Origin: Eremomyces bilateralis CBS 781.70 | Taxonomy: Eukaryota | Length of the DNA stretch: 64,000 nt | Reading direction: 5' to 3' (one strand) | Assembly (NCBI GenBank): GCA_010015585.1 | Contig: ML975171.1 | Shown: piece after piece, positions 31,390 through 33,543 of the stretch | Layout of the letters: each line of letters opens with the position of its first letter | Numbering within the stretch: position 1 is the stretch's first letter | Program-made: the position numbers and the translations under genes | Notes under the pieces: model-generated | What the model was told of the DNA's origin: nothing | The model's database searches: none | Seen by the model: only the letters and a program-made list of their open reading frames with translations

Positions 31390-32135
31390 GGTTGCAAAAT
31401 TGATATCTCGCCTGACGTTCCTTGGTTCTCTGGATGGAGGATGGGATCACAAAATACTCATTATGACGGCTGAGATCAAATGGTCCCAGTCGTAACAGTA
31501 AGGGTAGAAATGGAAGGATGGACTCGACGTACTCGACCCGTATCAATATGAGTTCTTGGGCTGATCCACTCATGTGAAATGGAGGAGCTGTGGGTTGAGC
31601 AGGACCAAATTTTGTTGCCTTAATTCCTGAGGCATCAACTACCCAGTATATTTGTGATCCGATGAATTCAATCAATTCAGCCGAAGTGAACATGGCCATG
31701 AATTCATGAAGTTTCTAGTAGTCGGAGATCATTAATATCACTCACCAAAATAAATCAACCCAGGCTTGCCGCTGGATACCACTGCAAAAGGGAATCCAAA
31801 GGAAGTCTTGTGCAAAACTGCCATTCAGTGAGAAGACCACTGGCACCCTTCCTCCACCGTCCCCCTAGACGACTAAGAGCCACCGCCGCCCATTCTTGTG
31901 GATTTGAGTTTATTAGGGTATTTCCAGAATAGTATTCTCCGTTTCCATGATCCAAGACAACATGCTTCCTTTCTTCCTCTCCTCCACCCCGAGGAGAGCG
32001 TAACGTCTAGCTGCCACCACTCCTGGAGTTTGGTACTACCTAATGATATCCTTCACCGGAACCTTTATAGTCACACCGGTCTCCCTTACTTGATTGTGTC
32101 ACACCGGTCACCAGCCATGTCTTCGGTTGGCACCA

Positions 32136-32205
32136 CTTCTCAATCGTTTCTCTTCAATCGTTTCTCCTTAACCGTTTCTTCTCAATCGTTTCTTCTCGAT
32201 CGTTT
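32136..32205 (+). repeat. 14-nt tandem repeat, 5 copies (consensus CTTCTCAATCGTTT), upstream of the RNase III-domain gene
   Basis: Units are cttctcaatcgttt, ctcttcaatcgttt, ctccttaaccgttt, cttctcaatcgttt and cttctcgatcgttt. Confidence 0.9.
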
Positions 32206-32273
32206 CTCCACTTCCTCTTTCCTTCTCTCAACACTGTCTCTCAACATCGCCTAAACAACGCCTATCTTCTACC

Positions 32274-32924
32274 ATGGCCAGCTTGGAGGGAAAGGTCACC
32301 ATTTGCGAAACCATTGTCTCTTACGATTTTGGTGACAAGCTGCTTTGTGCAATCGCGCTTAGTACATTCCCATATAGTGGTCCCTTTCACGGGGTCTTTC
32401 AGGCGCTTCCACGCAACGACCGCATGGCCGTGTATGGAGATTCGGTGGCCTCGAGCTACCTTTGTCGAAGGTGGGTTGATACTGATCTGCAAAAAGGTAC
32501 TGTGAGCTTTTGCATAGCTGTTTCCAATGACAACATGCTCATTTTCATAGGTGAATGGGATACAATTCGCCAGGCTGTCCTGGGAAACCGCAATCTTGCG
32601 GCTATCGGATTCGCGCATGAACTCCGACCTTGCGTGATGCTCAATCCTGGAACCACAACCCTGTCAGCGAAAACAATGGCTACTACGGTGGAGGCAATCC
32701 TTGGTGCCGTCTTCATCGATGGTGGCGATGCTGCCCTGGCGCAGGTGATGGGAACACTCGGCCTAACCCATACTCTCCTTGAAGTTGTAAGTTCACCAAG
32801 TACTATCTCACTCATGTCATTGGTGCTATTGTTCAACTCACATGGTCTTTGTCTTGGTCCCTTGATAACCGCGCCCAACATCTCTCTCGCGATCAGAACT
32901 GGGGTTTCTCTGTATAATAATTAA
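32274..32924 (+). CDS. Stand-alone ribonuclease III-domain protein without a dsRBD (Mini-III-like); 3' end uncertain
   Basis: YDFGDKLLCAIALS, NDRMAVYGDSVAS (compare NERLEFLGD), LGNRNLAAIG and KTMATTVEAILGAVFIDGG. There is an in-frame 54-nt intron at 32497-32550. A further GTAAGT donor at 32787 makes the C-terminus uncertain. Confidence 0.85.
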   Translation: MASLEGKVTICETIVSYDFGDKLLCAIALSTFPYSGPFHGVFQALPRNDRMAVYGDSVASSYLCRRWVDTDLQKGTVSFCIAVSNDNMLIFIGEWDTIRQAVLGNRNLAAIGFAHELRPCVMLNPGTTTLSAKTMATTVEAILGAVFIDGGDAALAQVMGTLGLTHTLLEVVSSPSTISLMSLVLLFNSHGLCLGPLITAPNISLAIRTGVSLYNN

Positions 32925-33133
32925 TTGTTGCATAATTACTCCGTAATGACGTATGTACTACTCTTCTACAGAGCCACCTTGGCGAAGCTATGTTATTATA
33001 TAATCATAACCCAGGCTAATGCCATAGCGTCGCCGAGGTGGCTTTCGTAGCAAAGAGGGATACAATTATACAGAGAAACCCCAGGTATAGGGCGAGAGAG
33101 ACGTCGTTCGCGTTTATGAGGTCTCGGACCTCA
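32865..33133 (+). ncRNA. Long fold-back RNA structure (candidate miRNA-like hairpin or RNase III substrate)
   Basis: Nested inverted repeats: 32881-32890/33092-33101 (10 bp perfect), 32899-32918/33065-33084 (20 bp perfect), and 32970-32992/33023-33045 (23 bp with 2 G-U pairs and 1 mismatch) closing a 30-nt loop. An adjacent 7-bp hairpin lies at 33117-33133. Transcription is not shown. Confidence 0.6.
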
Positions 33134-33543
33134 CTCGCCGGAGGACAGTCCATCTCAGAGGTGCTCGGGGAGGCTGCTCCACCGTGCCGGTGACGACACT
33201 CATTAAGATCGCTCTATCTGTTCGTATCCAAGCATCCCGAGTGGCTTCTAATGAGAATTTGATAGGAGACATCTACCCCGCCTGCGGGTTCTTAGAAGTA
33301 ACAATGTGACAGGGTGGAAGTGCGGGTGGAGGTCGCGGTATGAGAAATATATCCATCCCTGTTCGCGCTAAAGTATTGGAATTGAGGTTTGAAAGCAAAT
33401 TTGCTTCCGAAGCCACGAATCGACAGCTCTTAGACTTTTATTGAAGTTTGTATACATGACATTCCACGAAGTGTAGTCTTCTGGCACACAACAAGCAAGT
33501 TAGCCTATCTTAAAGCAATGATTTGCCTATGTTCCTATAGAGA

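Follow-up and report, generated by a model that had tools for sequence, protein, structure and literature searches.

A long hairpin in an intron of a minimal ascomycete RNase III-domain gene, recurring behind homologous genes: a candidate built-in double-stranded RNA substrate

Drosha, an enzyme of the RNase III class, cleaves hairpins in the mRNA of DGCR8 and in this way controls its own pathway through a pathway mRNA. In E. coli, RNase III cleaves a hairpin in the 5' untranslated region (5'-UTR) of its own mRNA (rncO), and this feedback is established (PMC3867540). In plants, intron 14 of Arabidopsis DCL1 (AtDCL1; MIR838) and intron 7 of Physcomitrella DCL1 (PpDCL1; MIR1047) contain hairpins that arose independently of each other; their excision from the primary transcript truncates the DCL1 transcript and competes with the formation of functional mRNA, and feedback by the intronic hairpin has been proposed for both genes (PMC4429486). 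Here we describe a gene for a stand-alone RNase III domain in a 64-kb stretch of contig ML975171.1 of Eremomyces bilateralis CBS 781.70 (the window, 64,000 nt in all), together with a 253-nt hairpin that lies in an intron of this gene and has counterparts behind homologous genes. An RNase III gene with its own hairpin belongs to a known type; its occurrence in an uncharacterised fungal family appears to be new.

The locus resembles the two plant cases in that the hairpin is intronic, the host gene belongs to the RNase III family, and hairpin sequences bear no relation to one another between lineages (PMC4429486). Unlike in plants, where the host is a large multidomain Dicer, the host here encodes a 162-amino-acid, domain-only ascomycete protein, known from sequence and contigs. 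With rncO it shares a double-stranded RNA (dsRNA) substrate built into the transcript of the enzyme itself and a negative feedback, which is here putative (PMC3867540). However, rncO is bacterial, a short irregular hairpin of a 5'-UTR that leads to decay via RNase E, whereas the hairpin described here is a long one within a spliceosomal intron, and its cleavage is a prediction. In contrast to Drosha and DGCR8, an animal system in which the hairpin is located in the mRNA of a partner, the hairpin here is a part of the transcript of the enzyme gene. The encoded protein is similar to bacterial Mini-III, which matures 23S rRNA with the help of ribosomal protein L3, in being a lone RNase III domain without a double-stranded RNA-binding domain (dsRBD) and a predicted dimer. 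Membership in Mini-III is not evident at the level of sequence; the proteins that match it best are Drosha, plant DCLs and bacterial RNase III. The activity of Mini-III does not depend on a dsRBD (PMC3867540). Finally, introner-like elements of Dothideomycetes, which are longer than normal introns and have a stable predicted structure, are comparable to the over-long spliceosomal intron of this gene, but they are present in hundreds of near-identical copies per genome (PMC3609843), whereas the hairpin is single-copy and tied to one gene family across lineages.

In the sequence-only reading of the window, the hairpin was placed at the 3' end of the gene, with the gene running straight into it. 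This was not borne out. We mapped contigs from four public sequencing runs on positions 32000-33500, using two DNA runs (X1 and X2) and one run, X3, whose RNA nature is a guess, since none of the listed runs that contain this stretch is recorded as RNA; the fourth run, X4, gave no contig here. The contigs of X1 and X2 were colinear across the gene stretch and contained neither splice joint. Run X3 provided a spliced contig (1265 nt, k-mer depth 57.9), which skips 54 nt and 479 nt, both with GT..AG borders, and an unspliced contig (492 nt, k-mer depth 5.5), which spans 32783-33274 including the whole hairpin. Since the GT..AG joints are missing from both DNA runs, X3 behaves as complementary DNA. 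Its spliced contig joins 32786 to 33266, and thus the hairpin is located wholly within intron 2 and is followed by a third exon. The open reading frame (ORF) 32274-32924 merely appears to enter the hairpin, because both introns are by chance open in frame, whereas coding exon 2 ends at 32786. What stood of the earlier claim is that the hairpin is on the strand of the gene and is transcribed with it: as the unspliced contig documents, it is present in the gene's own primary transcript. The best database match of the ORF is P0001, a protein of 168 amino acids named ribonuclease III of Eremomyces bilateralis CBS 781.70, which is identical to the window ORF except for one in-frame 18-codon intron. 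The coding part of the gene, with its introns and trailer, is as follows:

32274..32496, + strand: coding exon 1, with the start codon at 32274 (X3 spliced contig; matches P0001)
32497..32550, + strand: intron 1, 54 nt, GT..AG, open in frame (joint 32494>32549, cut placed +2; X3 only)
32551..32786, + strand: coding exon 2, with the remainder of the RNase III domain (Pfam match, protein match, X3 contig)
32787..33265, + strand: intron 2, 479 nt, with donor GTAAGT, branch-like CTAAT at 33248 and acceptor TAG, containing the entire hairpin (joint 32786>33266 in X3)
33266..33295, + strand: coding exon 3, nine codons and the stop codon TAG at 33293-33295 (X3 joint, sequence)
33296..33456, + strand: 3' untranslated region, as far as the X3 contig reaches; its last position is a contig end and not a mapped poly(A) site

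The spliced product has 162 amino acids. In the public model of P0001 the last exon (32972-33019, with the acceptor at 32971) is set inside the hairpin and is contradicted by the joint 32786>33266, so that this gene model can now be corrected. Intron 2 remains open in frame for 46 codons, and the translation of 32787-32891 can be aligned with the in-frame intron read-through tail of P0007, a 53%-identical homologue, up to 32891, i.e., through the left outer arm of the hairpin. Judged from the sequence, this likeness may mean either that the intron is conserved at the RNA level in its 5' part, or that there is a retained-intron isoform with a hydrophobic tail.

The three stems proposed earlier were found at their positions both by sequence reading and by an inverted-repeat scan. 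They form the following structure:

32865..33117, + strand: nested fold-back of 253 nt with outer, middle and inner stems (inverted-repeat scan, folding)
32865-32890 / 33092-33117, + strand: arms of the outer stem, 26 nt each, complementarity 81% (inverted-repeat scan)
32881-32890 / 33092-33101, + strand: perfect 10-bp core of the outer stem, in which TCTCTCTCGC pairs with GCGAGAGAGA (sequence reading)
32899-32918 / 33065-33084, + strand: middle stem, perfect, 20 bp (inverted-repeat scan, 20-mer search)
32972-32998 / 33017-33043, + strand: inner stem with 27-nt arms, complementarity 85% (inverted-repeat scan)

The duplex in the hairpin totals about 80 bp, and its G+C content (0.42) is below that of its flanks. 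Folded as RNA, the + strand of 32870-33115 reached a minimum free energy of -113.1 kcal/mol (z -10.69), and none of 200 dinucleotide shuffles was as good; the same was true of the - strand (z -10.90, 0/200). As had been stated, two of the three imperfect positions in the inner duplex (32970-32992/33023-33045) are G.U pairs on the + strand; the third is an A.G mismatch. The observation that nothing comparable occurs elsewhere in the window was also confirmed, as only four inverted-repeat pairs of at least 18 nt within 400 nt were detected in 64 kb, two of them being this hairpin. No Rfam family reached its gathering score in the window or in five homologous loci. The sole match below E 1 in the window was to the MIR476 microRNA-precursor model (25.8 bits vs a gathering score of 80), and this sub-threshold match reflects the shape of the hairpin alone. 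Positions 32543-32567 and 33043-33067 resemble each other in direct orientation over 25 nt (76% identity), which was judged to be due to chance.

Homologues of the gene were collected by a scan of metagenome contigs with the family alignment, which yielded 14 loci (L001-L014), known from DNA alone. They represent nine distinct lineages (L001 is the same as L002, L005 as L012, and L008 as L009 and L010, while L006 and L007 are 99.8% alike), and ten when the window locus (W) is included. Three concordant approaches were used to search them: the inverted-repeat scan, a sliding 240-nt fold over +-1600 nt, and targeted folds. A long hairpin (183-277 nt, z from -10 to -14.6) was present in six of the ten lineages, namely W, L003, L004, L006/7, L008/9/10 and L013, and in all six the strongest fold within +-1600 nt was on the strand of the gene and started 60-190 nt past the conserved domain. 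Each of the following hairpins was compared with 200 dinucleotide shuffles, none of which was as good in any case:

L003: 245 nt, z -12.7
L004: 263 nt, z -10.7
L006: 277 nt, z -14.6
L008: 191 nt, z -12.1, with a perfect apical stem of 25 bp
L013: 183 nt, z -10.0

Both the N-D-R type and the G-N-K-R type, the two deep branches of the family with about 30% protein identity, are represented among the hairpin-bearing lineages. Apart from L008 with L013, no similarity between the hairpins of different lineages was detectable. A hairpin in the same place, of comparable length and of unrelated sequence, in relatives down to about 30% protein identity indicates that it is the double-stranded shape that is kept and not the sequence.

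The sole alignable pair of hairpins allowed a closer comparison. L009 and L013 share one homologous block of 994 nt (68% identity), which extends from near the start codon to the end of the hairpin region. Per 100 nt, the coding sequence had an identity of 0.54-0.78 and the hairpin region one of 0.62-0.73, compared with 0.38-0.55 in the flanks. One of the two has malate synthase as a neighbour and the other a 2-hydroxyacid dehydrogenase, and gene neighbours are not conserved across the loci in general, where a dynamin, a Na/H exchanger and an O-methyltransferase were also found. In the consensus structure of L009 and L013, with 94 pairs, eight pairs were changed on both sides and none was broken, while sliding the partner by 1-3 columns left 0-2 such changes. 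Thus, the expectation that hairpins with covarying pairs would be found downstream of homologous genes was borne out as to recurrence in six of ten lineages, and as to compensatory changes in this one pair.

The G.U pairs of the inner duplex had been taken as a sign of selection on an RNA of the gene's own strand. We aligned the left arm of each of seven hairpins with the reverse complement of its right arm, and counted 61 G.U wobbles on the gene strand vs 30 A.C (binomial p 0.0015). The gene strand was also the more stable one by 11.6, 35.6 and 14.9 kcal/mol in L003, L006 and L013, respectively, whereas in L004 the - strand was more stable, by 2.7 kcal/mol. The strand argument is therefore valid for the family, but not for the window locus alone, where the count is 4 to 3.

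The product of the gene fits the description of a small RNase III-domain protein without a dsRBD. ORF 32274-32924 scored 27.7 bits with Pfam Ribonuclease_3 (PF00636; cut-off 27), and the same Pfam scan gave no dsRBD (dsrm) match; P0001 carries precomputed PF00636 and PF14622. Among NCBIfam models only TIGR02191 (RNaseIII) was matched, far below its threshold (28 bits vs a cut-off of 166), while the family profile matched Drosha at E 6e-15. No Mini-III chain was found among 34 matches in the Protein Data Bank (PDB) at E <=0.01. An AlphaFold 2 (AF2) model of the protein (predicted local distance difference test score, pLDDT, 93.2) has the all-alpha fold of RNase III, and its best Foldseek matches were the RNase III enzymes of E. 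coli, Aquifex and Campylobacter (probability 1.00, template-modelling (TM) score 0.60-0.67), with Drosha and plant RTL4 also near. A homodimer model scored 0.74 vs 0.00 for the best control (partner pLDDT 93, interface residues 49-77, at least 92% of contacts shared between runs); among proteins of known structure, 20 of 30 pairs of one chain but only 1 of 23 single chains attained this mark. The modelling supports a putative homodimer, in which the helix of the signature motif would form the interface, although the pass may stem from the model's memory of solved RNase III dimers.

The signature of the family, as seen in 125 aligned representatives, is N-[K/D]-R-L-A-x-x-G-D ... A-T-T-V-E-A. 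The four metal-binding carboxylates of Aquifex RNase III are E40, D44, D107 and E110 (PMC3867540). We mapped the corresponding positions through an alignment with the RIIIDb domain of Drosha; the Asp of the G-D motif (Asp56) is kept in 109/125 representatives and a Glu (Glu122) in 111/125. These two residues are, as we assume, those whose loss abolishes the activity of E. coli RNase III. The family is large: its profile detects 9931 cluster representatives at E <=1e-3, 1380 at <=1e-10 and 68 at <=1e-30, and its atlas clusters are mostly from Ascomycota; the longer members have no additional Pfam domain. Stand-alone RNase III-domain proteins are thus frequent among ascomycetes, yet we know of no described function for them. 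A contig of a paralogue, matching 32423-32474 and 32630-32710, was present in X1, X2 and X3, with a k-mer depth in X3 of 214 vs 58 for the gene described here. Its presence in the DNA runs as well as in X3 indicates that the genome has at least two expressed members of the family.

The conserved placement suggests, at the level of sequence, that we are dealing with a control element or substrate built into the gene and not with a stray transposon. A built-in substrate is the most economical reading, because the hairpin is linked to the gene and not to the locus, because the shape of the duplex is kept, and because the host encodes a dsRNA-nuclease domain. By analogy with the systems described above, we tentatively favour a gene-linked, sense-strand, conserved dsRNA element that would most likely serve cleavage-based negative feedback, while regarding this as somewhat short of probable. 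The hairpin would act in cis, as a dsRNA substrate in the pre-mRNA, and the transcript would have two fates. Splicing would remove the hairpin and produce the mRNA. Alternatively, an RNase III-type enzyme, for which the homodimeric product of the gene itself and Dicer are candidates, would cleave the duplex before splicing, whereby the transcript would be destroyed and the mRNA aborted. As the cut would destroy the transcript, the outcome would be negative feedback of the rncO, DGCR8 or DCL1-intron-14 type: the amount of this mRNA would fall as the free dsRNA-cleaving activity in the nucleus rises. Small RNAs derived from the stems would be a by-product.

Several observations weigh against this proposal. 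Two of the four metal-binding carboxylates are replaced in the family, by Ala in 114/125 and by Thr in 79/125 representatives, so that dsRNA catalysis by the family is putative only; Mini-III presumably also has Ala and Thr at these two positions. No significant downstream fold was found in four of the ten lineages, i.e., L001/2, L005/12, L011 and both copies in L014 (z from -1.7 to +1.1, 25 shuffles), the downstream sequence being short for L011 (235 nt) and for the second L014 copy (190 nt). L001/L002 is the closest locus (71% identity), and yet it is devoid of a hairpin. In L006, L008 and L013 a stop codon precedes the hairpin, and the hairpins of the homologues were placed from DNA alone, which does not distinguish an intron from a UTR. 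The compensatory changes come from two sequences only, with the consensus structure derived from the same two. At the window locus the G.U count is nearly balanced, as given above, and the - strand folds slightly better than the + strand (-117.0 kcal/mol); the excess of G.U across the family could partly be an effect of transcription-linked mutation bias and not of selection. Finally, the RNA evidence consists of the assembled contigs of X3, a single run guessed to be RNA. The presence of the hairpin did not correlate cleanly with that of the catalytic Asp: L001 and L014, with Asn, are devoid of a hairpin, but so are L005 and L011, in which the Asp is retained.

The perfect stems (20 bp here and the apical 25 bp in L008) are long enough to raise the question of whether the hairpin is a dedicated precursor of small RNAs (a hairpin RNA or a microRNA-like RNA), processed by the linked protein or by Dicer, with products that would act in trans on genes or invading nucleic acids, the two parts forming a silencing module. 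That gene and hairpin are conserved jointly, in a block of about 1 kb whose surroundings are not syntenic, would suit such a module, as would the match to MIR476, the only one below E 1 in Rfam, even if it is sub-threshold and a matter of shape. However, a conserved target in trans should hold one arm constant, whereas the hairpins are unrelated between lineages, and no complementarity was detected elsewhere in the window and the 14 loci, to which the search was limited. We consider a dedicated precursor unlikely. A broader version, in which the minimal RNase III enzymes of a widespread, undescribed ascomycete family would each form, with their own hairpin, a self-contained unit of some 1 kb able to duplicate and move as a whole, the enzyme dicing the hairpin (in an intron or a 3' region) as part of a Dicer-independent small-RNA or dsRNA-sensing module, seems to us rather more doubtful.

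The structure might also serve the transcript itself and have no relation to the nuclease, either by bringing the donor and the branch site of a long intron together or by assisting 3'-end formation or stability. Intronic structures with an influence on splicing are known from yeasts. Here, intron 2 is 479 nt long vs 54 nt for the other intron of the gene, and with the fold, 253 nt of the stretch that separates the GTAAGT donor from the CTAAT branch site would be looped out. On the other hand, without the hairpin the intron would already be short enough to need no help, and a general aid to transcripts would not explain the recurrence in 6/10 lineages of one family, with nothing comparable in the rest of the window or in the flanks of the loci. 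This possibility is improbable in our judgement.

The origin of the hairpin from mobile DNA was examined by copy number. A search with its 20-mers, allowing up to 3 mismatches, found in the 64-kb window only the two arms of the hairpin itself, and blastn across the window revealed no further copy. When X1 and X2 were read whole at >=80% likeness, the hairpin (32865-33117) was covered by the contig of the locus alone, with the reservation that contigs can collapse or drop repeats; the only other contig placed at 80% was that of the paralogue, which touches coding parts alone. By eye, no clear direct target-site duplication was seen at 32865/33117, though inverted arms are present. The alignment of P0007 up to 32891 indicates that the left outer arm is older than a recent insertion. 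L001 gives no information on an empty site, as its homology to the window stops at the end of exon 2 and it has no donor there. The hairpin is not a dispersed miniature inverted-repeat transposable element (MITE): the identity with a multi-copy MITE was ruled out by the single copy in the window and in the two whole DNA runs at this likeness, and that with an introner-like element by the single copy vs hundreds of similar ones. Selfish palindromic DNA (a MITE, a foldback or an introner-like element) without function in the intron, with the hairpins of the homologues as independent insertions or hitch-hikers, would account for the nested terminal inverted repeats, the low G+C content, the length and stable predicted structure shared with introner-like elements (PMC3609843), the transposase ORF adjoining the gene in L001 and the equally good folding of both strands at the window locus, but is very improbable given the single copy, the lack of an evident target-site duplication, the likeness of P0007 into the left outer arm, the conservation of the L009/L013 hairpin at the level of the coding sequence and with compensatory changes, and the family-wide G.U asymmetry in favour of the gene strand.

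In full-text literature searches, we found neither the family nor an associated hairpin described. The main text of two surveys of structured RNAs in fungi (PMC5640933, PMC8216456) does not mention RNase III, ribonuclease, Dicer or Rnt1, and the family is not treated in the passages covered of a re-analysis of fungal hairpin RNAs (PMC9757828) and of a survey of fungal Dicers (PMC12663654). A long dsRNA element physically tied to the gene across lineages of about 30% identity is a first concrete handle on this family, as it offers a candidate substrate and a feedback circuit that can be tested. If a built-in substrate is the true explanation, the family would be a fungal addition to the few known cases of an RNase III gene with a substrate of its own, such as rncO and DCL1 intron 14, with the difference that the sequence of the hairpin has been turned over repeatedly.

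Some further features were observed at the homologous loci. Directly upstream of the gene in L001, the closest homologue, which has no hairpin, no donor and Asn in place of the catalytic Asp, there is an ORF of a DDE_3 transposase (1849-2697, - strand, E 1.4e-10). The L014 contig (1-1851) carries two tandem members of the family on its 1.85 kb, with the motif of the first at 40 and the second gene at 1131-1661; in the second gene, the catalytic Asp is replaced by Asn. In L008 (1120-1330) and L013 (3477-3608), the main hairpin is followed by a second, weaker structured segment, which is conserved between both and in L013 has 60-nt arms with a complementarity of 73%.

In the window, the gene is preceded by a repeat:

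32139..32209, + strand: a 14-nt unit (consensus CTCAATCGTTTCTC) repeated five times in tandem, which belongs to the transcribed leader and lies 65 nt upstream of the start codon (covered by the X3 contig)

The X3 RNA contig extends at least about 340 nt upstream of 32000, and so the leader is either long or overlaps another transcript.

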